Numbered from the stretch's first letter, positions 14,954 through 30,521 are shown. The stretch is 32,000 bases of DNA from Candidatus Saccharimonadota bacterium (GCA_001897305.1 MKSO01000001.1:1-32000); one strand, 5' to 3'. The notes: generated from the letters alone by a model not told the origin. Made by a program: numbers and translations.

Positions 14954-14962
14954 ATCTTGGTT

Positions 14963-14991: not shown

Positions 14992-15059
14992 TCATAAGTA
15001 CTTGCTTTTTGAATAAATAGTGCCGTGGTATATAAAAACTATCCCCTCTTTCTGTTCTT

Positions 15060-15164
15060 TTTTCCACAGGTTAACAGGGGTAGTTGTTAAATGTGGATAA
15101 CTAGACCCCTATACACGGGTGGCGATACTTATTTTATTTATAACCCCTTTATGGTTGTGGAAAA
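15060..15164. promoter_or_regulatory. DnaA-box cluster in the rpmH-dnaA intergenic region (oriC part and/or dnaA autoregulation)
   Basis: TTTTCCACA at 15060-15068 matches 8/9 of TTATCCACA. TGTGGATAA at 15092-15100 is a perfect box in reverse orientation. TGTGGAAAA at 15156-15164 matches 8/9 in reverse orientation. An AT-rich run, TACTTATTTTATTTATAA, lies at about 15126-15143. Confidence 0.7.
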
Positions 15165-15184
15165 CTCTCACTCTATCGTATAGT
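15155..15184 (+). promoter_or_regulatory. Candidate dnaA promoter (-35 TTGTGG, 18-nt spacer, -10 TATAGT) overlapping a DnaA box
   Basis: TTGTGG is at 15155-15160 and TATAGT at 15179-15184. The ATG at 15223 is preceded by a GAGGGG Shine-Dalgarno. An alternative extended -10 (TGgTATATA) lies at 15026-15034. Confidence 0.35.
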
Positions 15185-15222
15185 AGAAGTAATAGATTCA
15201 ATCAAACAATATTGAGGGGAAG

Positions 15223-16617
15223 ATGCAGAAAGATTTGCATGCAATCTGGCAAGGTATATTAGGTGAAGTCGAACTTACTCTTTCGACTGGTAACTACACT
15301 GTGTTTTGGTCTAAAACAAAGCCGCTCTCTTTCGATGGTAATGAGATGGTGTTTGAAGTACCTAATATTTACGTACAGAAAAACCTTCAAACAAAATTTG
15401 ATAAACAAATCAGAGATCTATTAGCCAAGAACGAACTCTCCCCTGCAACTTTGACATACATTGTTGCATCCACTAATAAAAAACCTCGCATTAGTCGTGA
15501 GACAACCGCAACAAGCTTACCGCTAATGGAGGCTTCGTCTATAGCCAGTCCAGCGGCGGCGTCTGTGGGATATAAAGCCACACCTTCCCCACTAAGCGCT
15601 CGAGGAAACCTTAACCCTCGCTATACTTTTGATAATTTTATTGTTGGTTCTAGTAACGATCTCGCCTATTCTGCAAGTCAGGCTGTTGCCGCTAACCCAG
15701 GTGTAAAATATAACCCTATTTATTTCTACGGGGGTGTTGGTTTAGGTAAAACTCACCTCATGCAGGCTATTGGTAATGAAATTCTTAAAAATACCCCTGA
15801 CAGCCGGGTACTATATGTTAGTTCAGAAACTTTCGTGAACGAATTCCTTGATTATATTCGCTTTAAGAAAAAAGGTTTCTCCGATAAGTACCGTAATGTT
15901 GACGTGTTAATTGTTGATGACATGCAATTTATTGCAAATAAAGAAAAGACTCAGGAAGAATTTTTCCATACTTTTAATTTCCTTCATCAGAATAATAAAC
16001 AAATCATTATCTCAAGTGATAAGCCACCAAAGAGTATCCCAACCCTTACCGAACGTCTCCGTAGCCGTTTCGAAATGGGGATGAGTATTGATATTCAGAT
16101 GCCTGACTTTGAAACCCGTTGTGCCATCATTAACGCAAAAGCAGGTATTTCTGGCGTTACTCTTAACAGTGAGACGGTTGAATTTTTGGCTAATAACATT
16201 AAGACGAATATTCGTGAGTTAGAGGGGGCACTAAACCAACTCTTAGCTTACGCAGAATTGCACCATATCGAACCAGATGTCACTACTGCCGAAGGACTAC
16301 TTGGTAATGTCCGAATTTCTCGACCACAACACTTAACGAGTAAGCAAATTATTGATAAAACCGCTCGGCACTTCCAATTAAGGGTCGAGGAGATATGCGG
16401 CAGTCAACGGGATAAACATATTGTCGTACCCCGCCAGATTGCTATGTACTTATTACGAAGCGAGCTTCATTTGAGCTTTCCTAAAATCGCCGGTGAATTA
16501 GGCCGTAAGGATCACACGACCGCTATACACTCAGTTGAAAAGATTGAAAAAGCCATAAAGCTCGACTATATGATTCGCGAACAAGTAAATGCTATTCGGG
16601 AGCGTCTTTATGCGTAA
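15223..16617 (+). CDS. dnaA: Chromosomal replication initiator protein DnaA
   Basis: 464-aa ORF. Walker A is GGVGLGKTHLMQAIG and Walker B is DVLIVDDMQF. It carries the sensor and arginine motifs and the C-terminal DNA-binding helix KDHTTAIHSVEKI. Confidence 0.95.
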   Translation: MQKDLHAIWQGILGEVELTLSTGNYTVFWSKTKPLSFDGNEMVFEVPNIYVQKNLQTKFDKQIRDLLAKNELSPATLTYIVASTNKKPRISRETTATSLPLMEASSIASPAAASVGYKATPSPLSARGNLNPRYTFDNFIVGSSNDLAYSASQAVAANPGVKYNPIYFYGGVGLGKTHLMQAIGNEILKNTPDSRVLYVSSETFVNEFLDYIRFKKKGFSDKYRNVDVLIVDDMQFIANKEKTQEEFFHTFNFLHQNNKQIIISSDKPPKSIPTLTERLRSRFEMGMSIDIQMPDFETRCAIINAKAGISGVTLNSETVEFLANNIKTNIRELEGALNQLLAYAELHHIEPDVTTAEGLLGNVRISRPQHLTSKQIIDKTARHFQLRVEEICGSQRDKHIVVPRQIAMYLLRSELHLSFPKIAGELGRKDHTTAIHSVEKIEKAIKLDYMIREQVNAIRERLYA

Positions 16618-16624
16618 TACTTCC

Positions 16625-16849
16625 CTATTCACAGCCTGGGTAAAAAATGTGTACAGCTTGTGTGTTGATAGTGCTGTAAGTAGTGCACATCTATACACAG
16701 GTACTTATTTTGACCAATACAGTACCTATGAAAAGCGTGTACAACCAGCCTTTTTCACCCATTCTTTAGACAGTTTTGCACCACGTATATACACACCCAT
16801 TTTTGCTTATTTACCCCTGTTACATAGTGGGTTATTCACAGTATACACA
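16625..16849 (+). promoter_or_regulatory. Cluster of five co-oriented degenerate DnaA-box-like 9-mers in the dnaA-dnaN spacer (candidate oriC core)
   Basis: The 9-mers are CTATTCACA 16625-16633, CTATACACA 16691-16699, ATATACACA 16787-16795, TTATTCACA 16832-16840 (8/9) and GTATACACA 16841-16849. The last two abut each other and are followed by an AT-rich stretch running to dnaN. Confidence 0.5.
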
Positions 16850-16902
16850 TACCCTACTATTAACAAGGTGAAAGAAATATAAAGAAAGGACTCATAATAA
16901 CA

Positions 16903-18003
16903 ATGGAACTCTCAATTACACAAGAAAACTTTGCTAGAGCCCTTTCATCTGTTGGACGAGTAGCTAGTTCAAAGACACAATTACCTATACTAAGTAACAT
17001 TCTTCTTAGAACAGATGGTAATCGCTTACTTGTTGCCGCAACCAACTTAGAGATTGCTACAACGCAGTATATAGGTGCAAAAATTGTAAAACCTGGTTCA
17101 ATTACTGTTCCAGCCCGTCTTATTTCAGAATTTGTCTCTAGTCTTCCTAAATCTACTATTGAACTAAAAGTTGTGGGAGAAAATATCCACATTAGTAGTG
17201 GAAAATATAAATCTATTATCAATGGGGTGGTAGCTGATGAATTCCCTGAACTCCCTACAATTAACGAGAATAACTCAGTAAGCTATTCAATAAACACTGA
17301 AGAATTTAAGCAAGCCGTTTCGCAGACAGTTATTACTGCAAGCTCAGATTCTACCCGCCCTGTACTTACCGGTGTCTATTGGCACTCACACGAAGGTTGG
17401 ATTTACCTTGCGGCCACAGATGGCTACCGCTTATCGGAACGCCGACTTGTTGAAACTAAGAGTGAAGTAGCAGCTATTATCCCTACACAAACCCTTCAAG
17501 AAGTATTGCGAACAATTGTGGATGACTCAGAGACTATAGATGTACTATTCGATGAAAGCCAAGTTCGTTTCCGTATTAATGATGCGGAAGTAATTAGTCG
17601 CCTCATTGATGGTAATTTCCCTGACTATCGCCAACTCATTCCTGCTCAGTCTGATATTACCGCGACAATGAATAAAACCGAATTCACCCGCGTAACAAAG
17701 ATAGCCGGTTTATTTGCCCGTGAATCAGGTGGAAGTGTGACAGTAACAATCGATAGTGATAAAAAAAGTGTCTCACTCCACTCTATTGCATCTGAATTAG
17801 GTGAAAACACTTCTGAGCTTGAGGCTGAAATTGTCGGTGACGGCCAAGTAACGCTCAATTCACGATACTTAACCGAGGCACTTGGAGTAATTGATGCCGA
17901 GACAATTTCATTCAGCTTTAGTGGTAAACTCTCGCCTGTTATTTTGCAATCTACTGCTAAAGATACGAATTACTATCACGTTATTATGCCCCTTAAAAGC
18001 TAA
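16903..18003 (+). CDS. dnaN: DNA polymerase III beta sliding clamp
   Basis: 366-aa ORF immediately downstream of dnaA. The sequence is typical of DnaN (LATDGYRLS, NFPDYRQLIP, and the C-terminal MPLK ending). Confidence 0.95.
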   Translation: MELSITQENFARALSSVGRVASSKTQLPILSNILLRTDGNRLLVAATNLEIATTQYIGAKIVKPGSITVPARLISEFVSSLPKSTIELKVVGENIHISSGKYKSIINGVVADEFPELPTINENNSVSYSINTEEFKQAVSQTVITASSDSTRPVLTGVYWHSHEGWIYLAATDGYRLSERRLVETKSEVAAIIPTQTLQEVLRTIVDDSETIDVLFDESQVRFRINDAEVISRLIDGNFPDYRQLIPAQSDITATMNKTEFTRVTKIAGLFARESGGSVTVTIDSDKKSVSLHSIASELGENTSELEAEIVGDGQVTLNSRYLTEALGVIDAETISFSFSGKLSPVILQSTAKDTNYYHVIMPLKS

Positions 18004-18014
18004 AAGGGAAATAT

Positions 18015-19055
18015 ATGACCGCGGTCAAACGACTCAAAGTAGCCCATATTCGCTCTCACGACGAGTATAGACTAGACCTTTCCCCGGAAGTAACGATTAT
18101 TACCGGTGCTAATGGTAGTGGAAAGACGAGTTTGCTTGAAGCGGTATATATAAGCCTGCAAGGCGGTTCTTTTAGAGGGAGTGATGGCGATATCCTTCAA
18201 AAAGAAAGCCCTTGGTGGCGTATTGACGTTACATTAGATGATGACCAAGAGCGTGTTATTAAATTTGACCCAACCAAAACTACTAGTCGTAAGCAGTTTA
18301 CAATCGATAATAAAACAACTGCTCGTATACCGGCTAAATTAAAACATCCAGTAGTATTATTTGAGCCTGAAGACCTGCGCTTGCTTCACGGCTCCCCTGC
18401 TCGTCGTCGCCAATTTATCGATCGCTTTATTACCCAATTAAATCCTCTTTACGGCACTTCACTGCGTAAATACGAACGAGCTCTTAAACAACGCAATAAC
18501 CTACTCAAAAGCGCTCATATAAGTGATGACCAGCTCTTTGCGTGGAATGTCGCCTTGGCTGAACACGGTAGCTATATTATTGAGCAGCGCATCGCTTTTA
18601 TTGAACAAATAAACCAGAATCTGGCTGAACTTTACAGGTCTATTGCTGGTACGCACGATGACGTATCAATTCATTACTCACACACCTATATTGGCGATAT
18701 TAAGCAAAAGTTATTAAATGACCTCCATCTTCATCTTGAACGTGACCGTTATCTTGGGAGTACTTCCGTTGGTCCTCACCGACACGATGTGTTGTTTGAA
18801 ATTAACACCTCCCCTGCCCTATCTGTTGCCTCTCGTGGTGAAGCACGTACAATCGTGTTAGCTTTGAAGTTTTTGGAAGTCGATATTATTGAACAACTTA
18901 CCGATAAAACACCTATTATCCTACTCGACGACGTCTTCTCTGAATTAGATGCCAGTCGTCAGCAATTACTTACCAGCCAATTAAAAGGCCACCAAATTAT
19001 TATTACTTCCGCAACAAGCCATGCGGGTGAACACTTACGCCACGTTAAGCTTTAA
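18015..19055 (+). CDS. recF: DNA replication and repair protein RecF
   Basis: 346-aa ORF. Walker A is ITGANGSGKTSLLEAV, the SMC-type signature region is present, and Walker B is ILLLDDVFSELD. It follows the dnaA-dnaN-recF order. Confidence 0.9.
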   Translation: MTAVKRLKVAHIRSHDEYRLDLSPEVTIITGANGSGKTSLLEAVYISLQGGSFRGSDGDILQKESPWWRIDVTLDDDQERVIKFDPTKTTSRKQFTIDNKTTARIPAKLKHPVVLFEPEDLRLLHGSPARRRQFIDRFITQLNPLYGTSLRKYERALKQRNNLLKSAHISDDQLFAWNVALAEHGSYIIEQRIAFIEQINQNLAELYRSIAGTHDDVSIHYSHTYIGDIKQKLLNDLHLHLERDRYLGSTSVGPHRHDVLFEINTSPALSVASRGEARTIVLALKFLEVDIIEQLTDKTPIILLDDVFSELDASRQQLLTSQLKGHQIIITSATSHAGEHLRHVKL

Positions 19056-19681
19056 CGGCCACCGTAGTGATATTCAATAGTATAATCGTCGGGGTTGAAG
19101 CCAAGTGAACGGATTTTTTCTAGAGCTTTTATTTTACCCGTGCCCTCCTGGTCGTAATAAACAACCGAGATGCCCTTAAGATCGTTTGTTTTTGCGGCAA
19201 TAATATAATCTGAAGTATTAAGCGGTAGGTACGCTTGAAGAACAGGTTTTGTATTAATCTGATCAGAGAATGATAAACACTCCCCTGTATTACATGTAAC
19301 TGATATATCACCATTAATAACACCATTATCTATTGTTTGAAGTTTTATTTTCCACGATACATCGCTATTATTTAGCTTAACTATAAATTCAGAAAACCAA
19401 GACGTCGATGAGTAGGTATATGAACCATCGGCAATAGTCGCATGGTAGACACTTTCGCTCGGGTCTTTAATAAATCTATAAAGGTAATTACCCAGATTGC
19501 CGAATGAGTCTGAAGAGATGTGATCTGTGTATTTAGAATAGTTATCAATAACAACCGTTTCTTTTGATTTTTGAGTTCCCGGCCCCTTATTTACGACTAA
19601 TGCAACAACAATGAGGGTGACACATAGTGCTATAAAAACAACTGTAGAGAGAATAATTATTTTTCTGGTTCGTGTATCCAT
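19052..19681 (-). CDS. Bitopic membrane protein (N-terminal TM anchor plus ~170-aa external domain), last gene of the T4SS-like operon; function unknown
   Basis: 209-aa ORF. A single hydrophobic helix, IIILSTVVFIALCVTLIVVALVV, follows a short basic N-terminus. It starts 1 nt after the hydrolase gene's stop. Its stop overlaps the recF stop (shared TTAA). Confidence 0.65.
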   Translation of the reverse strand: MDTRTRKIIILSTVVFIALCVTLIVVALVVNKGPGTQKSKETVVIDNYSKYTDHISSDSFGNLGNYLYRFIKDPSESVYHATIADGSYTYSSTSWFSEFIVKLNNSDVSWKIKLQTIDNGVINGDISVTCNTGECLSFSDQINTKPVLQAYLPLNTSDYIIAAKTNDLKGISVVYYDQEGTGKIKALEKIRSLGFNPDDYTIEYHYGGR

Positions 19682-19682
19682 A

Positions 19683-21059
19683 CTAGTTACCTATAAATTT
19701 AGCCATCTTTTTTGCCATTTCTCCAGCAATAGAGCTATCCTTTGGCGTCGCCATATTATTATATACGTAGCCATTATGGCTATTCTTGAATGCTTCAAAC
19801 GAAGGGAATTGATACACAGCTACGCGATGACCTGAATTATAAGTAAACTCTTTTGTGGAGCCAGGTACACTCCCGCTCCAGTTTGTTTCAAGACTTATAA
19901 GTGAGCCGTCCGTCCCGACTCCGACAATTGTTCCTGTGTGGCCAGGTTCGCCCGATATACTACCATCTCCAAATGACCATATTGAGAATGGCTGAATGTT
20001 AGATCCATCAGGTTTTGCGTTTGCGTAAACATCGAAATTAATAGCGGTTAATGTATTCGCAACATTAACACCATCCGGTATACCAGGTACTGCAAATGGT
20101 TGCGGTGCGGTTGTAACGGCCATCCAAGCCGCACCGGCCGTACAATACCCACTATCCCAATCACAATAAAAGCCGCTTTTTATAGAGTCACCACCACAGT
20201 AAATAGTACTCCAGTCGTCAGATAACTTCTTTGCCACAATCACTGCTTGATCCCAACTTAGTCCACCACCACTCACGCCACACCTAGAACTAGTGCTACC
20301 ACTCGCCCCGCCGCTATATTTCTCTAAGAAACCCTTAGCATTGTCGATACGATGAGTGAGCACTCCATGTCCAGGAATACGATCTGCCTCAGTAGGAACA
20401 TCACCCGACCTTTCTATGAGTGCGTGAAATACCATAGTTGAGCCATTTCCAGCCTGTGACTCTGACCTATTGTTGTTGAAAGATCCCCAGAAACTCGCTT
20501 TAGTGGTATCCCCCTCTACGGTTGTCTCGGCATTTACCTGTTCTTGCCAAGTCATTGCCCCGTACTCACCATCCCACAAGTAGTTTAATTGGAATAATAG
20601 AGCGGCATCATTATCGGATAGGTTTACTCCAGCGGCTGCAGCGGCACTCTCGAGTTTAGTTCGTCGATCATACGACCACTGAATAATCCCAAGACCAACC
20701 CCATTACTCTCAACCGCAGAGGCTCTAAAACCACTTTCGGCTTCAATATTCCCCATCGTCCCAGCGGCTGCTACTGGTGTTAAACCCCGGGCTGTGAAAT
20801 AATTCCAGGCTTTCTCTTCGTTATCGGCGCCAGTTAATGAAGTAGGTGCTGGGCCGGTTAAGTTACCACCAGCAGCAGAACAGACTGACCCACTACAGGG
20901 GTCATAAAAGAAGACGTCATTATTACTATAGAAATCTTTATCACACTTTTTAGCATAAGTATCTTGGGTGCTAGTAAGAGGAATAGAGGAAATGATAAAA
21001 ACAAGGCTAAAAATAGCTACAACAAAGGGTTTAATAGTCATTTTTATGGTGTGCTTCAT
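19683..21059 (-). CDS. Secreted or membrane-anchored peptidoglycan hydrolase: phage-tail-lysozyme-like domain plus C-terminal CHAP-like domain
   Basis: The motif AAAGTMGNIEAESGF...GLGIIQWSYDRR..L matches the 'phage tail lysozyme' family pattern. The C-terminus has a Cys...His pair in CHAP-like context (YCTAGAAWM ... EPGHTGTIVGV). The N-terminus carries a signal or anchor sequence. I place the start at ATG 21059 (458 aa), 5 nt after an AGGAG Shine-Dalgarno, rather than at the track's 21095. Confidence 0.8.
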   Translation of the reverse strand: MKHTIKMTIKPFVVAIFSLVFIISSIPLTSTQDTYAKKCDKDFYSNNDVFFYDPCSGSVCSAAGGNLTGPAPTSLTGADNEEKAWNYFTARGLTPVAAAGTMGNIEAESGFRASAVESNGVGLGIIQWSYDRRTKLESAAAAAGVNLSDNDAALLFQLNYLWDGEYGAMTWQEQVNAETTVEGDTTKASFWGSFNNNRSESQAGNGSTMVFHALIERSGDVPTEADRIPGHGVLTHRIDNAKGFLEKYSGGASGSTSSRCGVSGGGLSWDQAVIVAKKLSDDWSTIYCGGDSIKSGFYCDWDSGYCTAGAAWMAVTTAPQPFAVPGIPDGVNVANTLTAINFDVYANAKPDGSNIQPFSIWSFGDGSISGEPGHTGTIVGVGTDGSLISLETNWSGSVPGSTKEFTYNSGHRVAVYQFPSFEAFKNSHNGYVYNNMATPKDSSIAGEMAKKMAKFIGN

Positions 21060-21067
21060 CTCTACTC

Positions 21068-24000
21068 CTATTGTCCACTTGCCGACCAGTGCCATGGCTC
21101 AACCTCGTAATTATAAAAACCATATTGAGCTGCATTTGCCTGTAACCATTTATAAGCTTTATATTGAGCACCACCGATTCGACTACATTCCGACTCTGCA
21201 TTTGCGGCTGATCCCCATCCGGTTACACTATCGGCGCCAGCGCGACAGATGGTATCTTCACCAACCACCCCAATATCCGCTGCAACCCCTGTGGTGTGTT
21301 GAGATACATACCCATTACTAAATTCTAAACGTAACCCGTCTTTCAGTTCAAGGTTGACACCCTCACTGCGAGCAGTATCCATCATATTCATAATATTCGT
21401 TGAAACAACCGATGCTAATAAACTACTTCCGTTTTTGTGATCACCAGTGTAGTAAGGGATTTGACAGGTTCGTATTATTGCGCCTGTTGCAGGGCTATTG
21501 TTACTATCGGCTGTGATTGTAAACGCACCATTAGCTTCAGGTGTTCTGGCATCGCAGGCGTACTTTGAGTAGTCAACTCCTGGTGCTAATGTCCAGCCAT
21601 TCTTTGCACTTATTGCTCCATCGGGAGCACTGGTTGAGGGTGTGGTACTAGCGGCTTTATCTTCGTCGTCGTTGCCGCTTAGCATATTTTCAATTTGGTG
21701 ATCCATGTAATAAATACGCTGAGCTGCGCTTTGTTGGGCGCTACGATCACCCTCAACAGTTACGGTTGAAGAATTAGACTTATCATTCTTTGACTTATCT
21801 TTATCATCATTCGCAGCACAGTTCGAACCTTCATTTCCACATGTCGAGACGGTATCAGCTACAGTGGTGCTCGAAGACTCTACTGTACAGCCACTTATTG
21901 TCTCGAGGTCAGCATCTGCGCATTCTGATATTGTCGTGGAGAGCTCGGAATTTTTACCTAGCCCAAAGTTATCAAGGAGTGCATTTGGTTCGTAGGCTTC
22001 ACCGGTGTTTGGGTCTACTTGATCAGAAACAAGGTCGTACGCCGTATCTGGAGCCATATCTAAATATTCGGCAGGCATGCCAACCGCAGGTGTCCCAGCA
22101 ATAGTTACTGCAATATCGTCATCAATACCTAACATAGAGGCGTACCCATATTTAGCTTCAACTGGATCAATATCTGCTGATACTGAATTACCCAGCATAC
22201 TAAATGGTGAACTAAGAATTGATCCTATAGTTTTAAGGCTAGATGATATCATATTAGTTGAACCGGCTGTACTGATAGCAAGTTTAGACACTATACTTCC
22301 AAGGAAAGTGTATTGGCTTGATGTATCAAACGGACTGAGCGTGGCTATATCCTCTTCTTTATACTCATTATTAACGTCATCCATTGCAACCTTAAAGCCC
22401 TTTACTTGGCTTTTCTTTAACACAGCACCACCGCCACCAAGCGCCGTTAGTGAGAATGCTGCGAATAAGCCAACACCAAGTGCATCTCCAAGCTCGATAC
22501 CCTGTGCGTCGCCATATATATCGCCCAATGCATTTACTGCAAGGTCGTAAGCGCCGTTACCTATCGCATCGACTACACCCGTCTGTTCAAGTAGATTCAT
22601 AAGTCCATCGATGGCACCGAAGGTAATCGCAACCTTACCAACTGCCTGAAGAGCCTTTAGTGCCGCTGCGCCGATACCACCACTGGCCGCGCCGATTGCA
22701 GCGGTGATACCTGCGGATGCTATAGCTGCTTGTGGGCTATTAATGAGGTTACACGTTTCTTTTGTGCTAGCATTTAACTTCGAAGCTCCCTGTATAAAAT
22801 CTGTACTATACATTGAATATCCGGGAATATACTTGCTTGGTTTAAGTATAGAACCTGTACCGGCGCCGATTGCGGCGAGTAATATTGGTGAATCAAGTGC
22901 TGATTTCGTATCTTCTGCACCATCAACCTTATATTCATCCGTTAGAGATTTACCAAGAGCCGATACTTGTTCTGGCTTAGCGTCACCACTTCGTATCATT
23001 CCTCCAGCCGAGAGTATGAAGCCACTCGCTAATCCCACGGCTTGTGCTAATTGGATAGCTCGCTGAGTACCAGCAACAAAGGTTGGGATTCCAATCATCA
23101 TACATGCTCCAGATCCAATAGCAAGGATAGGATCTCCACCAGTCTTTTTTACCTTATCGGCACTCCGCTTTAATAATAGACGAACCCTATCTTTAAAAGT
23201 TTTCTTGACAGCTCCTTCTGATGTATCAGCCGCACCAACTTTTGTCGCTTCCGAAACCTTTTCTTTAACGTTGCTTTCTTTGAAGTCAGTATCAGCAGCT
23301 TTACCACCATCCTTCTTCATCCCCCACTTATCCATAATGCCCTTAATAAAGCGACCAGAATATGACAGATAACGCATATTATAGGCGGTCTTAAATAACT
23401 TTCTGAAAGCTGGGTTAGACTTATATTCGTTTACAAACTCGGATGCTGGTATGATTTTTTCGGTTGAGCCATTTGTAAATTTGTAATGGGTTGGATTTTC
23501 GGTCATATATCCGGTTCCCTTAATATCGACCGGATCCCCGCTTGCATTCACAGCTACGATTCCTTTGCCATCTTTAGCCATAGACTGTAGCATAATTTTC
23601 GGCATCTTTTTGTCGCGGCAAAGTGACAGCTTTGTATCGCAAGGCCCAGAGTCACTCATCTTAAGCTTAAGCTTCGCAATAAGACGCCGCTCCAGCATGG
23701 TGCCGCGACTATCGTTTTCGGCAGTTGCCCCTTGCTCGAGGCTTGGTATGAGCATCGTTGGCAGCCATCCGCCAAGAAGAAAGATGATAATTCCAATAAT
23801 TCCACCAACCCCGAGTATTGGGGATGACCGCTTAAGGTTAGCAACCGAAAGAAATTTAATTTTTGGCTTAGAACTTTCTGGAGTAGTGTTATCCTGCCAA
23901 GGGGTAGCCGGGGATCCTTCTGACTCTGCTTTTCGAGCTTTCTCTATGTTTTTATCTTCTTCTGAGCTATCGGCATTTTCCTGAAAGTTTCGCTCAAAAT

Positions 24001-24118
24001 CATCCATATTAATCGTGCCGCGCTGCTCGGAACCTAAAAGCTGGTCAGCGGCTTGCTGACTGCGGTTTAACTCTTCGTCCTGCTTCTGATCACCAGGTGT
24101 AAAAGTGGAAGTGGGCAT
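21068..24118 (-). CDS. Large polytopic membrane protein with a C-terminal M15 (VanY/LAS-type) zinc peptidase domain
   Basis: 1016-aa ORF. An acidic N-terminus is followed by TM segments such as ILGVGGIIGIIIFLLGGWLPTMLI and by Gly/Ala-rich hydrophobic segments around residues 330-560. The C-terminus carries SQHTTGVAAD (S-x-H-x-x-G-x-A-x-D) and EPWHW (E-x-x-H), the M15B signature. A GGAAGG Shine-Dalgarno lies 5 nt upstream. Confidence 0.8.
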   Translation of the reverse strand: MPTSTFTPGDQKQDEELNRSQQAADQLLGSEQRGTINMDDFERNFQENADSSEEDKNIEKARKAESEGSPATPWQDNTTPESSKPKIKFLSVANLKRSSPILGVGGIIGIIIFLLGGWLPTMLIPSLEQGATAENDSRGTMLERRLIAKLKLKMSDSGPCDTKLSLCRDKKMPKIMLQSMAKDGKGIVAVNASGDPVDIKGTGYMTENPTHYKFTNGSTEKIIPASEFVNEYKSNPAFRKLFKTAYNMRYLSYSGRFIKGIMDKWGMKKDGGKAADTDFKESNVKEKVSEATKVGAADTSEGAVKKTFKDRVRLLLKRSADKVKKTGGDPILAIGSGACMMIGIPTFVAGTQRAIQLAQAVGLASGFILSAGGMIRSGDAKPEQVSALGKSLTDEYKVDGAEDTKSALDSPILLAAIGAGTGSILKPSKYIPGYSMYSTDFIQGASKLNASTKETCNLINSPQAAIASAGITAAIGAASGGIGAAALKALQAVGKVAITFGAIDGLMNLLEQTGVVDAIGNGAYDLAVNALGDIYGDAQGIELGDALGVGLFAAFSLTALGGGGAVLKKSQVKGFKVAMDDVNNEYKEEDIATLSPFDTSSQYTFLGSIVSKLAISTAGSTNMISSSLKTIGSILSSPFSMLGNSVSADIDPVEAKYGYASMLGIDDDIAVTIAGTPAVGMPAEYLDMAPDTAYDLVSDQVDPNTGEAYEPNALLDNFGLGKNSELSTTISECADADLETISGCTVESSSTTVADTVSTCGNEGSNCAANDDKDKSKNDKSNSSTVTVEGDRSAQQSAAQRIYYMDHQIENMLSGNDDEDKAASTTPSTSAPDGAISAKNGWTLAPGVDYSKYACDARTPEANGAFTITADSNNSPATGAIIRTCQIPYYTGDHKNGSSLLASVVSTNIMNMMDTARSEGVNLELKDGLRLEFSNGYVSQHTTGVAADIGVVGEDTICRAGADSVTGWGSAANAESECSRIGGAQYKAYKWLQANAAQYGFYNYEVEPWHWSASGQ

Positions 24119-24151
24119 ATATACCTTCCATTATACCCCTAAAGGGGCCTT

Positions 24152-25987
24152 TTAGACCCCTGTTCCTGCTTGTTGAGATAAAGCTTGGGGATTAGTGTTA
24201 ATGAGTTGAGTTTCAGTTGGTGACGCCTGAATTTGAATATGCACATGGCTTTGCCCAGCAAAGAATAATCCTTGCCCAATTGGGAAGTTAGCGAGACGCT
24301 TCTTCTCCTCTTCGGTGAGCTTGAATACGTCAGACAATACATCGACAGCACTTGAAGACTGTTTCAAAAGAAGCTGCATGGACGTGTTTGATACAATTGC
24401 CCGCCCCATCTTACTACTCATGAAGTCTTCAACATCTTGCGTGATAGTAGTCAGCCCAAGGTAATATTTACGCGCACGCTTAGCAAGGCTAAACAAGAAG
24501 TTTGCCGAGTCGTCGTATTTCATCAGTTGCCAGGCCTCATCCACGATAAGCATGCGCTTTTTTTGTTCGGTGCGGGTAATATTCCAAATGTGGCTCAATA
24601 CAATATACATGGCAACCGGGCGAAGCTCATCTTCGAGGTCGCGAATATTAAACACGACCATTGGGTTGTTGATATCAATATTTGATTGCTGACTAAAAAT
24701 ACCGGCAAATGTACCCGTAGTGTATTTACGCAGGCGCTGCGCAAGTGAAGGGCCGCTCCCACCCATATGCACGAGCGTGTCGTAAAGGTCAGCGATGGTT
24801 GGTGGTGGTGAGTTGTGTGTGAGGGGGTCGCTGGTAATGCCAACGCGAGCATAGGTATCAATAAGCGCTTGGTCAAGGTCGGCCTCTTCAACGGGAGTAA
24901 GGGCGGCGACCTGTTGCCCTGTGGCGGCTACCTGGGTTCCACCCAACATTAACCTAAATAGTCCGTGGAGTGTCACAAGGTTAGCGCGCAGGGCGTCGTC
25001 TGCTTCCTCGGTGTCGATGACGCGCGGAAGATCAAATGGATTAATACGCGTTTGCGAATTAAGACTTAGGCGAATATAGGCCCCACCTACTGCGTCGGCT
25101 AATTTCTGGTATTCATTTTCTGGGTCGATGATGATAACTTCCGTGCCGGTCATCATACTGCGTAGCGCCTCGAGCTTCACAGTAAATGACTTACCTGCAC
25201 CGGACTTTGCAAATACCGCCATATTAGCGTTCTCAAGTTTAAAGCGGTCGAAAATAACCAAGCCGTTGTTGTGCATGTTGATACCATACAAAATGCCTTG
25301 GTTGTCGGTAAGGTCAGCACTGGTGAATGGGAAGCTGGTACTAATAGCACCCGTATTCATATTGCGGCGAATTTGAAGTTGGTCGGACATTTGCGGAATG
25401 GAACTATTAAGTCCTTGCTCTTGTTGTGATGAAGCAACCTTACTAAATACCATTTGCTGGCCAAAGATTGTTTCTACTTTTTGTTGCACAAAGTTAAGTT
25501 CATCCATGCTGTCTGCCCACAAGGTTACATACAGACCAAAACGGAAGAAACGCTCGGCACCAACCTGAATTTGGTCACGCAGTTCCTCGGCGTCGTTAAT
25601 AGCTGCCTCAAGGGCTGGGTCACGAACACGTCCCTTCTCACTGTTAATAGCCGCCGAGGCTTCGAGTTGAGTCACTTTTTTACGAAGGTTATTGAGGACT
25701 ACCTGACTTTCAACTGGGTATATGTACATACTAATATCGAGTACCTCATCGATATTCACAAGTGGACTAAGCCAACCAGTGTAGATAGAACGAGGATAGC
25801 CATATACGTATATCGTTCGGCCATATTTTGTGCCAAGCCTAAAATATGAAGCATGAATTTCAATACTACTTGGGGCAATAAGGTCACGAAGTGTAGAAAC
25901 ACCTTTAAGGAATGCCTGCTCAACTTCAGCCTGCTCGCGTGCGCGCTGCTCGGCGGCAATATCGACGGCGGATTTTTGCTTCGCCAT
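24152..25987 (-). CDS. virB4: VirB4-family type IV secretion ATPase (Gram-positive TraE/TcpF/PrgJ/ConE type)
   Basis: 611-aa ORF. Walker A is FAKSGAGKSFTVK and Walker B is RMLIVDEAWQLM. The N-terminal segment YGRTIYVYGYPRSIYTGWLSPL is typical of this family. The start overlaps the upstream stop (TAATG). Confidence 0.9.
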   Translation of the reverse strand: MAKQKSAVDIAAEQRAREQAEVEQAFLKGVSTLRDLIAPSSIEIHASYFRLGTKYGRTIYVYGYPRSIYTGWLSPLVNIDEVLDISMYIYPVESQVVLNNLRKKVTQLEASAAINSEKGRVRDPALEAAINDAEELRDQIQVGAERFFRFGLYVTLWADSMDELNFVQQKVETIFGQQMVFSKVASSQQEQGLNSSIPQMSDQLQIRRNMNTGAISTSFPFTSADLTDNQGILYGINMHNNGLVIFDRFKLENANMAVFAKSGAGKSFTVKLEALRSMMTGTEVIIIDPENEYQKLADAVGGAYIRLSLNSQTRINPFDLPRVIDTEEADDALRANLVTLHGLFRLMLGGTQVAATGQQVAALTPVEEADLDQALIDTYARVGITSDPLTHNSPPPTIADLYDTLVHMGGSGPSLAQRLRKYTTGTFAGIFSQQSNIDINNPMVVFNIRDLEDELRPVAMYIVLSHIWNITRTEQKKRMLIVDEAWQLMKYDDSANFLFSLAKRARKYYLGLTTITQDVEDFMSSKMGRAIVSNTSMQLLLKQSSSAVDVLSDVFKLTEEEKKRLANFPIGQGLFFAGQSHVHIQIQASPTETQLINTNPQALSQQAGTGV

Positions 25988-26895
25988 TATTGCAGCCCTC
26001 CAGTGGGAGCTGGCCCTGGTGCTTTTTTAACAAAAGTAGTTGCTAGGTTGTCAAAATCGCCCAATGGCTGACGCAGTGCAGTATCGGGGTTGTAGTAGTT
26101 ATAGTACAGCTCCCCTAGTGATTTAGTGTCAAGCTGAACACACTGCACGCCGATCTGGAAAAGCCCAGCCATCACCGAATCAACTCGGTTTTTAATTTCA
26201 TCTTTGGCTTTTTGGTAGGTCGAGGCGTCAATATGGGTAATATTGTTTTGAGGACGAGCAAAGAGCTTACCGAAGAAACCCTTCCCCTGCTCTAATAGTT
26301 TGGCTGCGTCTCCGTTGGGGAAATAGGGAATAACAATGTAAAAAGATTTCTCCATAATGTTCGCCTCTTGTGATAGGGCATCAATAAAGCTGATGTAATC
26401 GTCCATAAGAACACCAAGAAGCATATTATCTTGTGAGCGTCGGGTATCAACGAGCTTGTCGATATATGGACCGATATCAACGCGTTGTGAACGAACCAGG
26501 ATTTGCACTGGGAAATTCAACGAGTTTAGGAAGTTTTGGTAACTATACTCTACCCCCTCCCTTTCGCGGTCGCTCATAAGGTCGAAATTGATTGATTTAC
26601 AAGCTACTACAGCTCTGAATGTACCATCATTCATAATAACCATACTGTCGCGCAGCTCTGATAGCTGTAACGTGCTTTGGGTTGAACTGGTGTTTTTTGG
26701 TGTTGGCTTGACGTTGGGATCGGCACTCCCAAGAGGGCCTGCAGTTTGAGGCATGACCTGAGGGGCTGGTTGGCCGGGTGCTTGCATGGCTTGACCTGGA
26801 ACAGAATAAGCCTGTTGCTGAGCAGGCTGAGGAACACCCGGTTGGGGTTGATTATACGGAGAATTATTAGGCGGCATACCCTCTGAAAATCCCAC
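25987..26895 (-). CDS. Hypothetical protein with a Pro/Gln-rich N-terminus and a ~220-aa globular domain, translationally coupled to the VirB4-like gene
   Basis: 302-aa ORF. Residues 1-75 are low-complexity (P/Q/A). No TM segment is obvious. The position between the PrgI-like and VirB4-like genes is fixed by tight spacing. Confidence 0.7.
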   Translation of the reverse strand: MGFSEGMPPNNSPYNQPQPGVPQPAQQQAYSVPGQAMQAPGQPAPQVMPQTAGPLGSADPNVKPTPKNTSSTQSTLQLSELRDSMVIMNDGTFRAVVACKSINFDLMSDREREGVEYSYQNFLNSLNFPVQILVRSQRVDIGPYIDKLVDTRRSQDNMLLGVLMDDYISFIDALSQEANIMEKSFYIVIPYFPNGDAAKLLEQGKGFFGKLFARPQNNITHIDASTYQKAKDEIKNRVDSVMAGLFQIGVQCVQLDTKSLGELYYNYYNPDTALRQPLGDFDNLATTFVKKAPGPAPTGGLQ

Positions 26896-26921
26896 TCCTT
26901 TAGGCGATACTATCTATCAAA

Positions 26922-27968
26922 TTATCGAAGCGAAATGACCACTTCACCAGATTCCTCTTCGGCCTTCTTCTTTAAGCGGTTGGCCTCGTGAGCAATCGTT
27001 TCGATAGATAAATCGGCGTTGTTTGCAAGGTTAATTATACCAGCAGAGGGTACAGAATCGCTAGTGGTTGTAGTAGTTTCTTTTGTTTCAGTAGGCACGG
27101 GAGTATCAATCTCCGCCTGATGAGCCGTATCGTTAAGGGGTTGAATGACGCTTTGCTGGAACTCTGGGTATGGATTAAAGTGTGGCTGTGGCGCAAGTTG
27201 CTGGGCCATTTGTGTTAGGAGCGGATCCTCGGCGGTTGGTTGTGTTACCGTTTGTACCGGCGCAGCGGGCTGGGCAAAGGCCGCAGGTGTAGTAACTTGG
27301 GGCTCGGGTTGTGTGGGTACTACTTGCTGTGCAGGAGTTACAGGTACCACCACGGGTACCGGTGCTGGTACTTGTGTCGCTTGTAGCATCCTTTGGCGGG
27401 CTTCTTCATGCATTCTCTCGGTACTTTGTGACATCATTTGGTCGAAGTTTTGGGCAATTGAGGTTGAAGTATCAAGGATATCGGTGGCCCCTTGTGCCTC
27501 AAGGTAAGCGTCGTTGTTCATAGCAGTACCTACCCCACCAGCCACACCTCTAATAGCCCAGCCTTGAGTGTCAACGATATTGGCGAGGTAATTCAAGCGT
27601 TGAGCGGCTTCGTTTTGTGATAAATCTTTTGTTCGCTTCACCTCGATTGTTTTTGGAGCGGTAATTTCAATAAGAGTCTCTACGCCCTCACCGTCCCATA
27701 TACGACGGTGGGGTTTTAAGTAAAATGAGACGATAGCTGCTAGATATATTTCCATTGGCTGATCTTTGCGTAGGGGTAAAGCCAAGGCGCCGAAGAAAAT
27801 AATAATAGGTAGTGGAATAATGGCTAGCCCAATAAACAACTGAGCAAGCCCCCAAGCTATTAAAATGAACCCAGCCACAATAATTAGGTAGATGAATTGA
27901 CGAAAGCTAAACGGACCGATGAGTTTATCATCTGCTTCGACATCTTGAGGGACTTTATAGGTTGCCAT
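26922..27968 (-). CDS. PrgI-family (VirB3-like) T4SS membrane protein with a long C-terminal extension
   Basis: 348-aa ORF. The N-terminus ATYKVPQDVEADDKLIGPFSFRQFIYL is followed by two TM helices, which matches the PrgI/TcpE-type pattern. Residues ~190-300 are a P/Q/V/T/A-rich low-complexity region. Confidence 0.7.
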   Translation of the reverse strand: MATYKVPQDVEADDKLIGPFSFRQFIYLIIVAGFILIAWGLAQLFIGLAIIPLPIIIFFGALALPLRKDQPMEIYLAAIVSFYLKPHRRIWDGEGVETLIEITAPKTIEVKRTKDLSQNEAAQRLNYLANIVDTQGWAIRGVAGGVGTAMNNDAYLEAQGATDILDTSTSIAQNFDQMMSQSTERMHEEARQRMLQATQVPAPVPVVVPVTPAQQVVPTQPEPQVTTPAAFAQPAAPVQTVTQPTAEDPLLTQMAQQLAPQPHFNPYPEFQQSVIQPLNDTAHQAEIDTPVPTETKETTTTTSDSVPSAGIINLANNADLSIETIAHEANRLKKKAEEESGEVVISLR

Positions 27969-27989
27969 AAATTAAGTATATCAGTCTAG

Positions 27990-30521
27990 TTATGGGTGTC
28001 TTGATATGTTTATTATACTTGGGCTATTCTTGCCGATTTTCTTATTGAGTACTTCATCGGAAAGAGCGTCCTGGGCATTTGATATAGTTTGTGCTCTTTC
28101 ACTTGCGCTAACGTTTGCAAGCTGGTCATGTATAAATGAAAGCTCGTCTTTGTCTCCAGTTGCAATTTTTTCTGCTGAGTATGCTCCAGCTTTAATCGCC
28201 TCTTGTGCAAGCGTTTCGGTGTTAACCGCCTTACCTTCTCTTATTGCACCCAGTGCCGCCCCACCAACGTAGCCCGGTCTATTAGATGATGAAGCAAGTG
28301 AATCTGCTAAGTGTGCTCGAATTGAGGTGTCTGATGAATTCCCGACAGTGTCAATAAGTGAGCGTGTGCTGTTGTGATCACCTGTTTGGATGATCGAACT
28401 GATGGCCGCTTTCTGAGTGGCCGTATCTGATTTTATTGTCTTTCCGTTATGTAAAACAGAACCACCTTTTGCAAGTTGAGTCATTTGATCTAAAGATAGG
28501 CCCAGTTTGTCTATAGTAGCCTTGGCTGCTGTAACTTCTTCAGCTTCTATTTTTGCATTAATACGCTCACCTAACCTGCTTTGCTCTGTACCAAACTTAC
28601 CCGTTCTGTCGTTGAGTCGACTATTGAGTGCTGAACTGGCGTTACGCCCCCAGTTAAGGGGGTTTCTGTTTGAGCCTTTATAGGTACCACCTAATATCTG
28701 GGCACGTCTGATCTTCGCTTGCTGACCCCTAAATTGTTGTAATTGACCAAGCTTGGATGTATCTTTAACCTTACCCCCAATGCGGCCAGTTGCTTTGGAG
28801 CTAAGATTTGAAATCTTAGCTCCAATACTCCCAGCGGCACTTAAAGAACCCTTCAAGAGACTAGGTACGACAAACAAAGGGAGAGCTGCCACGCCAACGG
28901 CAACAATTTGCATCATTACATTATCTCCAGAAGCGTCTTTTATAACATTAGCAGCGAGTGTTGATGCGCCAAATACCACAGCAATGATTGGGAATACCAT
29001 AAGCAGAGCGAAATACATCTTATACCACTTCTTAAACCATTGTTCGGTATTTGGTAGAAGAAACGCCACAAATGCTAGCGGAGAAATAATGGTAAGTAAT
29101 ACGATAAGCGCCGTACGGGCTACTAGAATAAGTACGATAAGAATCAAAGCAAGTAGTACAGCAAGTAGTACGGGCATCGTTACGGCCATAGCAACACCAA
29201 TAGCACCCGCAACAACACTCGCAACTAAAACTGCAATACCAAGCCCATTTGAACTTGCATCTCCTTTGCCTGAAATATCTCCTGCAATTTGAACGTAAGA
29301 GTTGCTCAGAAGACTATTGAGTGAATATCCAAGAATATTACTAAGGTCTACCGCTATTTGACATATAAAGAACGATACGTTCACTAGTATTGCCGCAATC
29401 ACCAACCTTGGTAGCATTTTCTTTACGCCATAGTTTGTAACACCCTGTCCTGTTAGCTGTGAAAATATAATAATAAGAAAAGCAATAACAAATGCTACGT
29501 TTGCAATATTACGCATTGTTGACCAAGCTGCTCTAATAGCACTATTGCTAAGTACGTCACTCTTCGTCTCTAGAAAAGTCTCCGATAGAAAAGAAAAGGC
29601 ATTGTCTGCAACGCTCCCTAGGAAGTTCATAACTGGGCAAACCAACCAACCAATACCCTCTACCCCACAGGACGTTGTTGGCTCGGCTGTAGTTGGTGTC
29701 GGGGTAGCAGCTTCTTCGGCTTTATCTCCCGCTGCGGTAACGGAGGCGGCGATATTGGTGAGACTTACGCCCTTTGCCTCGAGTAGTGTTACTACTGCGT
29801 CCTTAGTTACACCGTTGCCGATCTTTGAGGACATACAGGTTGCAAACCCAGTTTTCATGGTTTTCTCGTACTCTTCGGGCGATGCTGATGCTGTATTTAC
29901 ATTTGCGGTACTTGTTCTCTTTCCCCAACATTCGTACACCAAATTTTTCCATCCGGCTTCACCACACGAAGATTGCACCTCTACTCCACCAACGCCACTC
30001 GGACAATTATAAGCAACCCATTTGTTCTTGAGTGGATCAAGGGTATCGCCAAATTGAGAGTACAATTCAGTAGCCTCCGCGCTAGCACCAGCTTGTTCAA
30101 CGGCATTTTTGCCGCTCCATCCCTTAATATCTATAGTACTAGTTGTGGTTCCATCAACACATCTGGGTCGAGAATCGCTACTTACATTCTGTTTTGTTAA
30201 CTTAGCGGTGCCGCCCGATAAAACTATTTTATTTGTTCCATCGTGACAAACGGAAGCGGCGGCTTGTCCACCGCCGGTTTTAATTTGTGGGCCATTGTAC
30301 GTAATACCCCCGTCGGTACTGGTGTAGCTGTAGGTTACGCCAGATTTGTCGCAATCTGGACTCACGTACTCAATCTTTGTGGAGTCTATATAGCGATAAC
30401 AAGAGCTCGCCGCATTTGCTGGCTTTGTTATAGAGGTAGCTAGAAAAACGGAAGCAATTAGTGCAAGAAAAAGCAAACCTACGAAATGACGAACTTTTAT
30501 ATGACGAATAAAATAAGGCAT
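27990..30521 (-). CDS. VirB6/TrbL/TcpH-like polytopic T4SS channel protein with an N-terminal Cys-rich ectodomain and a C-terminal hydrophilic domain
   Basis: 843-aa ORF. It has a signal peptide (VGLLFLALIASVFLATSITKPANA) and a ~260-aa region with 10 Cys. About 6-7 TM helices span residues ~285-560, and the tail is ~280 aa and hydrophilic. Size and layout resemble TcpH/PrgH-class proteins. Assignment is by architecture and context, not by a motif. Confidence 0.65.
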   Translation of the reverse strand: MPYFIRHIKVRHFVGLLFLALIASVFLATSITKPANAASSCYRYIDSTKIEYVSPDCDKSGVTYSYTSTDGGITYNGPQIKTGGGQAAASVCHDGTNKIVLSGGTAKLTKQNVSSDSRPRCVDGTTTSTIDIKGWSGKNAVEQAGASAEATELYSQFGDTLDPLKNKWVAYNCPSGVGGVEVQSSCGEAGWKNLVYECWGKRTSTANVNTASASPEEYEKTMKTGFATCMSSKIGNGVTKDAVVTLLEAKGVSLTNIAASVTAAGDKAEEAATPTPTTAEPTTSCGVEGIGWLVCPVMNFLGSVADNAFSFLSETFLETKSDVLSNSAIRAAWSTMRNIANVAFVIAFLIIIFSQLTGQGVTNYGVKKMLPRLVIAAILVNVSFFICQIAVDLSNILGYSLNSLLSNSYVQIAGDISGKGDASSNGLGIAVLVASVVAGAIGVAMAVTMPVLLAVLLALILIVLILVARTALIVLLTIISPLAFVAFLLPNTEQWFKKWYKMYFALLMVFPIIAVVFGASTLAANVIKDASGDNVMMQIVAVGVAALPLFVVPSLLKGSLSAAGSIGAKISNLSSKATGRIGGKVKDTSKLGQLQQFRGQQAKIRRAQILGGTYKGSNRNPLNWGRNASSALNSRLNDRTGKFGTEQSRLGERINAKIEAEEVTAAKATIDKLGLSLDQMTQLAKGGSVLHNGKTIKSDTATQKAAISSIIQTGDHNSTRSLIDTVGNSSDTSIRAHLADSLASSSNRPGYVGGAALGAIREGKAVNTETLAQEAIKAGAYSAEKIATGDKDELSFIHDQLANVSASERAQTISNAQDALSDEVLNKKIGKNSPSIINISRHP

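Follow-up and report, generated by a model that had tools for sequence, protein, structure and literature searches.

Saccharibacteria, like other Patescibacteria, cannot grow without a host bacterium, and their type IV secretion system (T4SS) must cross two walls of the Gram-positive type. We examined a stretch of 32,000 nucleotides from a Candidatus Saccharimonadota bacterium (GCA_001897305.1 MKSO01000001.1:1-32000; this whole stretch is hereafter the window), the minus strand of which encodes at 21068..24118 a protein of 1016 amino acids (aa), referred to below as the target. The open reading frame (ORF) call places its ATG start at 24118, and a ribosome-binding site (RBS; GGAAGG) lies 5 nt 5′ of this ATG. 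Together with the adjoining lysozyme protein, the target would be the only enzymatic part of the T4SS that faces the walls. A preliminary description of this DNA, made from the sequence alone, had taken the protein to be a polytopic membrane protein fused to a C-terminal M15 (VanY-type) peptidase, and its author knew of no such combination in other T4SSs. The explanation that fits best as a whole, to which we assign a probability of roughly 0.7, is that the target is a lineage-specific envelope subunit of the T4SS carrying an outward-tethered, wall-breaching peptidase. Nor is the M15 domain peculiar to this protein: by sequence, at least six kinds of module, M15 among them, can replace one another.

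A C-terminal domain of the M15B peptidase type

When the C-terminal region was analysed in isolation (aa 831-1016) it matched the Pfam family VanY (PF02557) with 31.7 bits (E 1.5e-7), above the gathering cut-off of 25 bits; the match obtained with the whole protein was borderline (24.9 bits, E 1.9e-5). A profile built from the last 190 aa of 16 species and compared with the PDB retrieved LdcB/YodJ of B. subtilis (4ox3; E 8e-21), VanY_B (5hnm/5zhf/6a6a; E 7e-19), BaLdcB (E 2e-16), SpLdcB (E 2e-12) and VanXY (4f78; E 7e-11), followed by the lytic L-Ala-D-Glu endopeptidases LysB4 (E 8.5e-10) and Ply500 (E 2e-9). In the profile alignments the Arg, SxHxxGxAxD and ExWH positions were in register with those of 4ox3, 5hnm, 5zhf and 6a6a, and because the two lowest E-values were obtained with the catalytic motifs aligned, the resemblance to M15B enzymes is, at the sequence level, far beyond chance. 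The motifs SQHTTGVAAD (aa 939-948) and EVEPWHW (aa 1005-1011), which had led to the M15B/LAS assignment in the first place, are exact, and Pfam, profile and fold agree on them. Nine residues (R930, S939, H941, G944, A946, D948, E1007, W1009 and H1010) were invariant among 14 family proteins and in the 16 species, and the presumed zinc ligands H941, D948 and H1010, whose alignment had been proposed as a check, do align at both the sequence-profile and the fold level.

An AlphaFold (AF2) model of the domain alone had a predicted local distance difference test (pLDDT) score of 87.9 and a predicted TM-score (pTM) of 0.87. The comparison with VanY-like enzymes and phage endolysins gave LAS-fold matches: in the best 12 PDB matches of Foldseek, BaLdcB, VanY_B, BsLdcB and Ply500 were found at a probability of 1.00, and the further neighbours (Shh, MepA, VanX, VanXYc and LysB4) were again exclusively of the LAS fold. 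Sequence and model thus both point to a genuine M15B/LAS peptidase with its set of catalytic residues intact. A sequence search of the PDB with the whole protein returned nothing useful, and the whole protein had no match in NCBIfam or among the PHROG families. A word-index search for homologs of the M15 domain by itself retrieved just two fragments and gave no lead to an outside origin of the module, and tblastn of the module against 50,697 phage genomes gave no match.

Membrane topology

The first 95 residues contain 19 D+E versus 11 K+R and include a conserved motif (consensus MPxTxTPGDxKQ..LNPxQ). They precede a first transmembrane helix (TM1) with a Kyte-Doolittle (KD) hydropathy of 2.42 in the target and a mean of 1.94 across 155 family members, and with an insertion score of -1.7 kcal/mol on a Hessa-type scale; the insertion values used here are approximate, and the hydropathy scales are heuristic rather than a dedicated predictor. 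Since the 20 residues before TM1 hold on average 6.0 K+R and those after it 0.7, the helix is predicted to be oriented with its N-terminus inside (N-in). Composition bears out the acidic head, the membrane helix, the Gly/Ala-rich helices and the Cys-containing linker of the preliminary description, whereas the term polytopic fits the data poorly. That is, only TM1 is strongly hydrophobic, and the later helices, which lie in the Gly/Ala-rich segments 331-375, 464-510 and 549-567, reach a family mean KD of 0.9-1.4 only, with insertion scores of +2.0 to +3.9 kcal/mol for 331-349, 357-375, 469-487 and 549-567. By the same scale, six of the seven candidate segments of the VirB6-like protein of the operon scored -5.1 to +0.4 kcal/mol (the seventh +3.6), and VirB4 had none. 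A VirB6-type set of five or more strong TM helices was not found in the target, which has one.

These values suggest that TM1 is the only robust membrane helix and that, on the simplest reading of the sequence, the protein is bitopic with about 900 residues outside. Three pairs of invariant cysteines in the body (160/167, 339/456 and 733/744) suggest extracytoplasmic disulfides. As orthologs bear up to six kinds of wall hydrolase at their C-terminus (two of the six alternative kinds being recognised by motif only), enzymes that would lack a substrate in the cytoplasm, the C-terminal domain very probably faces outward. The topology check proposed in the preliminary description thus gives an N-in TM1 and a probably outward-facing domain, while two marginal helices keep the path beyond TM1 ambiguous. 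Between the body and the enzyme, the linker has pLDDT values below 50 at aa 750-790, followed by a conserved helix (792-813) and by the acidic junction that in a pair of relatives forms the 5′ recombination breakpoint described below.

An orphan scaffold family of Saccharibacteria

A pattern scan with one genome per GTDB species showed that at least 117 species genomes encode a relative of the target. The 80 relatives listed belong almost all to Candidatus Saccharibacteria, including cultivated Nanosynbacter/TM7 strains whose orthologs are 27-29% identical over aa 10-1011. The source organism is a saccharibacterium, a member of an epibiont lineage, and the gene sits inside a T4SS operon, both as previously described. 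A homolog with 72% identity is flanked by the same genes in unchanged order, four T4SS pilin genes being found still further upstream, and the order VirB6 (one or two copies), PrgI, TrsD-like, VirB4, target, lysozyme gene is kept in nearly all of 82 related loci. An exhaustive profile search with the scaffold only gave 1178 representatives at 50% clustering, 720 of them at E<=1e-10 and 329 at E<=1e-30; among the 150 matches listed, nearly all were 800-1300 aa long and aligned almost end to end.

The scaffold itself (residues ~96-820) had no Pfam match even at E<=10. With the full model, Foldseek against the PDB gave nothing beyond unrelated transporters at E>0.2, which we regard as noise, and the best match of the target among BFVD folds (E 0.43, probability 0.04) amounts to none. 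Membership of the VirB6/TrbL class was likewise not seen, neither by Pfam at E<=10 nor by hhalign against the VirB6 family of the operon, where a probability of 0.2% rules out that the scaffold is a diverged VirB6 paralog. No match to the scaffold was found by tblastn in 72,556 plasmids; given these null results, neither scaffold nor M15 module is recognisable, at BLAST sensitivity, as a protein of conjugative plasmids or phages. On sequence comparison, the scaffold of ~700 aa therefore appears as a large family for which neither Pfam, the PDB, the VirB6 class, plasmids nor phages provide a relative, and such a family was not found in the literature searched. In some lineages the scaffold persists without any peptidase (e.g. 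L003:10001-12643, 880 aa, where the lysozyme gene still follows, and L004:9830-12181, 783 aa), and it should therefore have a role of its own.

Divergent lineages (loci L076 and L081, from Nanosyncoccaceae and other Saccharibacteria metagenome-assembled genomes) have two scaffold-like genes, of ~1310 aa and 920-1042 aa. The operon of L076 is laid out differently, with both genes placed between VirB6 and PrgI; in L081 the two were detected together with VirB6 only. The tail of another family member (P0103, 1117 aa) contains the sequence GPIDHVYASGD, which may resemble a motif of the endonuclease/exonuclease/phosphatase type rather than that of a wall hydrolase.

Exchange of the enzyme cassette

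A census of the C-terminal modules was taken over 246 family members using iterated local hidden Markov models and Pfam spot checks, as BLAST under-called the modules. M15/VanY was the most frequent type (96 members), followed by M23 (63), a third LAS-like type with the motif SxHxxGxAxD...HxH and no Pfam match (25, recognised by motif only), NlpC/P60 (11), Peptidase_C39_2-like (9) and CHAP-like (5, also by motif only), and the remaining 37 had no module or a short or other tail. Spot checks confirmed the Peptidase_C39_2 modules (41.5 and 35.3 bits), whereas that of NlpC/P60 was weak and below threshold (21.2 bits versus a cut-off of 23). The M23 modules retain HxxxD and HxH, and the NlpC/P60 modules their Cys and His motifs.

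Unlike modules were found on closely related scaffolds. In the trimmed scaffold alignment the closest such pair, at 95% identity, was formed by the relatives L065 (NlpC/P60) and L010 (M15); for other combinations the closest pairs were 88% identical for M15 versus M23, 72% for NlpC/P60 versus C39-like, 68% for CHAP-like versus M23, and 64% for the third LAS type versus M15. Of the 21 clusters formed at >=60% scaffold identity, 8 contain more than one module type. The L010/L065 pair was examined at the DNA level (Table 1 lists the corresponding features of the target). Over aa 1-858 the two proteins show 92.7% identity, past this point they are unrelated, and the two DNAs are ~95% identical over more than 16 kb except in one block (10808-14941 in L010 versus 12165-15080 in L065), which starts at an acidic NGEDE linker past the conserved helix and ends at recF. 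As the swapped block runs on to recF, the downstream genes have moved with the enzyme tip: they encode a Phage_lysozyme2/GDSL-like protein and two small proteins in L010, versus a glucosaminidase/Peptidase_C39_2 protein and two other small proteins in L065. Every one of the small proteins begins with a strong anchor, and none is conserved from one cassette to the other.

The sequences thus indicate that the variable unit is larger than the peptidase domain, being a block that opens at the acidic linker within the target gene, takes in the hydrolase gene together with one or two small anchored proteins, and closes at recF, and that each cassette supplies a glycan cutter and peptide cutters drawn from different families. 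The C-terminal enzyme is, in other words, an exchangeable cassette, recently and repeatedly swapped together with the downstream hydrolase genes, a pattern that was not found in the literature searched. A bolder extension, which we consider less likely than not, is that the operon ends, on its 3′ side, in a hypervariable cassette for breaching walls, which recombines at the conserved helix and acidic linker and whose enzymes are fitted to the host's peptidoglycan chemistry. If such a match between cassette and host were true, the scaffold would be a machine-tethered arm bringing a host-specific enzyme to the site of contact, and the cassette a determinant of the host range of the epibiont.

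Two side observations concern the cassette genes. The small proteins that co-vary with the enzymes could be cognate immunity or adaptor factors. The partner gene L010:11869-13674 combines Phage_lysozyme2 with a sub-threshold match to a GDSL-like acylhydrolase (25.5 bits versus a cut-off of 32.9), a part that could be a peptidoglycan de-O-acetylase preparing the wall for the lysozyme.

The counterpart in Candidatus Southlakia epibionticum

Wang et al. 2023 (Cell, PMC10633639) showed that Southlakia epibionticum depends on its T4SS (SEML1_0006-0019) for epibiotic growth, for which the system is essential, and a review describes the Saccharibacteria T4SS as the first that is essential for the survival of its own carrier (PMC12857230). 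In that gene set SEML1_0007, 3342 bp in length and labelled 'hypothetical protein', lies directly downstream of virB4 (SEML1_0008), and its transposon sequencing (Tn-seq) calls are GD/ES/ES, likewise those of SEML1_0006 (PMC10633639). The same source gives as top Foldseek matches of SEML1_0007 a 'Peptidase M15B domain-containing protein' and a 'Peptidase M23 domain-containing protein', and places an ECOD domain of the Hedgehog/DD-peptidase type at 951-1105; for SEML1_0006 it lists two lysozyme-like domains and a cysteine proteinase domain, and SEML1_0005, in the same position as the 209-aa protein of the window, is an 'exported protein' with a PEGA domain (PMC10633639). The essential 'peptidase homologue immediately downstream of virB4' and the lysozyme homologue are also cited by Quinonero-Coronel et al. 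2025 (PMC12102498).

SEML1_0007 of strain ML1 resembles the target in its place after virB4 and before the lysozyme/CHAP gene, beside recF-dnaN-dnaA, in its size (1113 versus 1016 aa) and in having a C-terminal Hedgehog/DD-peptidase domain on an unannotated N-terminal body. It belongs to another species, and in the literature searched neither a scaffold family nor topology nor cassette swapping has been described for it. The target is taken as its counterpart by synteny, size and domain annotation rather than by direct alignment, a weak point of the favoured explanation. The novelty suspected in the preliminary description accordingly does not stand: the architecture is common in the phylum (at least 117 species genomes, with the scaffold in 1178 representatives), it has been catalogued as SEML1_0007, and the Southlakia counterpart is essential. 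In the literature, no functional or structural work on this component was found, SEML1_0007 being mentioned in a table entry and one sentence only. What the present analysis adds is the pattern of cassette swapping and the definition of an orphan scaffold family, which perhaps replaces a wall-spanning subunit of the VirB8 type.

Proposed mechanism and competing explanations

In the mechanism that we favour, the acidic cytoplasmic tail (aa 1-95) and the N-in signal-anchor (aa 101-119) would fix the protein in the epibiont membrane, the conserved and mostly helical body of ~625 aa would project outward, and the conserved helix with the flexible acidic linker would carry at its far end a peptidoglycan peptidase of exchangeable type. 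In the target this would be an M15B zinc peptidase, in which H941, D948 and H1010 are predicted to bind zinc, E1007 to act as general base and R930 to bind the substrate; that it is enzymatically active is likely. Peptidase and co-transcribed, anchored lysozyme/CHAP protein may then cut the peptide and glycan parts of the wall where T4SS and pilus pass. Tight junctions are found between the operon genes for the VirB6-like, PrgI, TrsD-like, VirB4, target and lysozyme/CHAP proteins. The scaffold would position the enzyme and may in addition supply the wall-spanning role of a VirB8-type subunit. VirB8 and VirB10 are bitopic N-in proteins with a large outward body. Because the target appears to be built in the same way, and a VirB8 homolog is undetectable in these systems (Quinonero-Coronel et al. 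2025, PMC12102498), a scaffolding or VirB8-like role is proposed tentatively, at somewhat less than even odds.

Several observations weigh against this explanation. LdcB and VanY, the nearest solved relatives of the domain, act as carboxypeptidases: they shorten stem peptides and leave the peptidoglycan mesh closed. The Foldseek TM-scores of the domain are modest (0.38-0.46), owing to an extra N-terminal beta subdomain of ~70 aa and a Cys-containing insertion between D948 and W991 in the module. Furthermore, helices 331-349 and 549-567, at only +2.0 to +2.2 kcal/mol, could be marginal membrane helices, and the flank 311-330 is K/R-rich, so that the topology past TM1 is ambiguous; with an even number of membrane crossings the enzyme would be cytoplasmic.

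If the outward position is accepted, two walls come into question as substrate. Hydrolases act on the wall of the donor in the characterised Gram-positive T4SSs, as is the case for PrgK, TraG-pIP501 and CwlT. Given this precedent and the tethering to the cell's own membrane, the wall of the epibiont, the first that a tethered enzyme would meet, has about an even chance of being the main substrate. The host wall as an additional or main substrate comes somewhat behind, though the rapid turnover of the muralytic set en bloc points to a changing substrate outside the cell, the host wall for example, or else to an arms race. The strongest competitor of the explanation as a whole is accordingly a host-directed weapon or key, in which the scaffold would bring the peptidase through the epibiont's own wall and the peptidase, with the glycosidase, would cut the host peptidoglycan so that pilus or channel reaches the host membrane, the cassette being putatively matched to host wall chemistry and helping to set the host range. 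It is supported by the replacement of the whole muralytic cassette in a pair of genomes whose flanking DNA is ~95% identical for more than 16 kb, with M15 and lysozyme/GDSL in one and NlpC/P60 and glucosaminidase/C39 in the other, and by the mixing of modules in 8 of the 21 scaffold clusters; proteins facing another organism typically turn over in this way. For epibiotic growth the T4SS is moreover essential, recognisable relaxase and coupling proteins are absent from its cluster (in the part covered by the window, Pfam and NCBIfam scans found no coupling protein), and ~900 extracytoplasmic residues with a disordered linker of ~85 residues would give the enzyme reach. However, the membrane in which the protein is anchored is that of the epibiont itself, signals for cleavage or release were not found, the donor-wall precedent points the other way, the swapping could be neutral if any cut suffices, and some lineages have no module at all. 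We therefore regard the host-directed alternative as a real but minority possibility. The question of self wall versus host wall is made experimentally tractable by an exchanged cassette on a conserved scaffold, in the transformable Southlakia.

The carboxypeptidase relatives lead to a second alternative, in which the M15B domain would edit stem peptides as a true LD- or DD-carboxypeptidase like LdcB or VanY rather than lyse the wall, removal of the terminal D-Ala blocking the re-crosslinking of a hole made by the lysozyme, or freeing D-Ala or peptides for uptake. The profile E-values for LdcB and VanY_B (8e-21 and 7e-19) are indeed far better than those for LysB4 and Ply500 (8.5e-10 and 2e-9), and the Foldseek ranking follows the same order. 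Close relatives of the target carry M23, NlpC/P60, CHAP-like or C39-like modules instead, however, and as M23, NlpC/P60 and CHAP enzymes are typically endopeptidases or amidases, the interchangeability of the module favours the cleavage of stems or cross-links as the activity under selection. The Pfam family VanY, moreover, also includes lytic endolysin domains. Editing in place of cutting is for these reasons unlikely.

Still less likely is a polytopic channel protein of the VirB6 kind to which a peptidase domain is attached and of which five or six helices would cross the membrane as part of the translocation pore. Several hydrophobic Gly/Ala-rich helices, two of them at about +2 kcal/mol and hence within the marginal TM range, and the K/R-rich flank before residue 331 are consistent with it. 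Against it stand the Pfam (TrbL/VirB6) and hhalign results, the mean hydropathy of the later helices (0.9-1.4 versus 1.94 for TM1) and the much more favourable scores of the six VirB6 segments of the operon; moreover, a count of six helices would put a wall hydrolase in the cytoplasm. A catalytically silent peptidase domain with a wall-binding or regulatory function, as reported for the LytM and CHAP domains of PrgK of pCF10, in which only the SLT domain is described as active (PMC11323569), would fit with the orthologs that have no module but is the least probable alternative, every catalytic residue being invariant in the M15-type orthologs of 16 species and the 14 family proteins, and the M23 and NlpC/P60 versions keeping their motifs as well. 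Returning to the wall-breaching envelope subunit, its parts can be compared with better known systems.

Likeness to known systems

Functional parallels are PrgK (pCF10), TraG (pIP501), TcpG (pCW3) and CwlT (ICEBs1), which like the target are products of T4SS-operon genes with an N-terminal anchor and an extracytoplasmic wall hydrolase (the outward side being predicted here). These four proteins are needed for T4SS function. In each of them a single chain unites a glycosidase (SLT or muramidase) with CHAP or NlpC/P60, and a conserved non-catalytic body of ~625 aa is lacking, whereas here the glycosidase is on the adjoining gene and the peptidase is of the M15B type; no SLT, lysozyme, CHAP or NlpC/P60 Pfam domain was found in the target, the lysozyme and CHAP domains sitting in the 19683-21059 gene. 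That the canonical Gram-positive T4SS hydrolases use other enzyme classes, as remarked in the preliminary description, is thus correct, with the addition that PrgK also has a LytM/M23 metallopeptidase domain (PMC11323569). LdcB (4ox3, 4mph, 4ox5) and VanY_B (5hnm, 5zhf) share with the C-terminal domain the fold, the R...SxHxxGxAxD...ExxH set and an extracytoplasmic site of action, but are small, stand-alone, anchored or secreted carboxypeptidases of housekeeping or resistance, whereas here the domain is the distal module of a T4SS protein of 1016 aa.

Two further systems are alike in purpose or design. Phage tape-measure proteins (T5 pb2, or those with M23 or lysozyme modules) are also long helical proteins of ~1000 aa with hydrophobic helices and an exchangeable C-terminal hydrolase, and use their muralytic ends to cross the wall of another cell. 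Homology of the target to them is ruled out by the PHROG and BFVD results, so the likeness is an analogy only; the lysozyme domain of the adjoining gene does match lysozyme modules of tape-measure PHROGs. In Xanthomonadales, the bacteria-killing X-T4SS effectors (X-Tfes) likewise hydrolyse peptidoglycan in association with a T4SS, the wall attacked being that of another bacterium. They are soluble substrates with cognate immunity proteins, injected by a diderm VirB/D4 system via the coupling protein, whereas here a monoderm system carries the enzyme as part of one of its own membrane-anchored subunits.

Operon structure and neighbouring genes

The genes from 19052 to 31739, all on the minus strand, form a T4SS cluster of the Gram-positive type that also includes a 389-aa protein. 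Because the cluster abuts recF-dnaN-dnaA and rnpA-yidC-jag, it is chromosomal and lies beside the replication origin. Table 1 collects the features of the target and its neighbours.

Table 1. Features of the target protein and of the adjoining T4SS genes in the window
Feature	Coordinates	Strand	Basis or remark
Target gene, 1016-aa T4SS scaffold-peptidase protein (predicted)	21068..24118	-	ORF, RBS, homologs; operon slot of SEML1_0007
Acidic disordered N-terminal tail, aa 1-95, predicted cytoplasmic	23834..24118	-	Composition, pLDDT below 50, K/R cluster before TM1
TM1, aa 101-119, predicted N-in signal-anchor	23762..23818	-	KD 2.42, family mean 1.94, insertion score -1.7
Conserved, mainly helical scaffold body, aa 120-745	21884..23761	-	Invariant columns, no known homolog
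Low-complexity Cys/Ser/Asp/Lys linker, aa 746-826, with helix 792-813 and acidic 'NGEDE'-type junction	21641..21883	-	
Exchangeable C-terminal module, here a predicted M15B (VanY/LdcB-like) Zn peptidase, aa 827-1016	21071..21640	-	Pfam, AF2, Foldseek, PDB profile
SQHTTGVAAD (SxHxxGxAxD), aa 939-948, predicted Zn ligands H941 and D948	21275..21304	-	Motif and alignments
EVEPWHW (ExxH), aa 1005-1011, predicted catalytic E1007 and Zn ligand H1010	21086..21106	-	Motif and alignments
209-aa small protein, N-terminally anchored, end of cassette, adjoins recF	19052..19681	-	Insertion score -4.7 at aa 8
Phage_lysozyme2 and weak CHAP protein, membrane-anchored glycosidase/peptidase	19683..21059	-	Pfam 73.8 bits, CHAP 17.6 bits
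VirB4 ATPase, CD1110 family, 611 aa	24152..25987	-	NCBIfam NF045971 377.7 bits; Pfam P-loop_TraG
TrsD/TraC-like, 302 aa, homolog of the VirB4 N-terminal domain	25987..26895	-	PF26593 in ortholog
PrgI (VirB3-like), 348 aa	26922..27968	-	Pfam PF12666 44.5 bits
VirB6/TrbL-like polytopic protein, 843 aa	27990..30521	-	Pfam TrbL 23.4 bits; TrbL_3 in ortholog

The lysozyme/CHAP gene, the counterpart of SEML1_0006 and part of the variable muralytic cassette, encodes an N-terminal hydrophobic anchor. Its start is probably the ATG at 21059 (MKHTIK..., then the anchor), which lies 8 nt past the target stop and is preceded by GGAG at a spacing of 5 nt; the start given by the ORF finder, an ATG at 21095 overlapping the last target codons, is less likely. 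The 209-aa protein that follows is poorly conserved between cassettes. On the other side of the target, VirB4 is split into two genes (24152-26895), one for the 302-aa TrsD/TraC-like protein and one for the 611-aa ATPase, with base 25987 shared by the stop of the former and the start of the latter; the same split is present in all related loci. The VirB6-like protein of 843 aa has six strongly hydrophobic segments and a marginal one. The G+C content is 0.44-0.49 in the T4SS block (window positions 20001-28000) versus a lower 0.37-0.44 in positions 1-20000. Across the origin genes from the T4SS, positions 1960-12908 are occupied by a large cell-surface polysaccharide cluster, which contains several glycosyltransferases of the GT4 and GT2 families, an ABC-2 permease with a Wzt-type ATPase, and GtrA.

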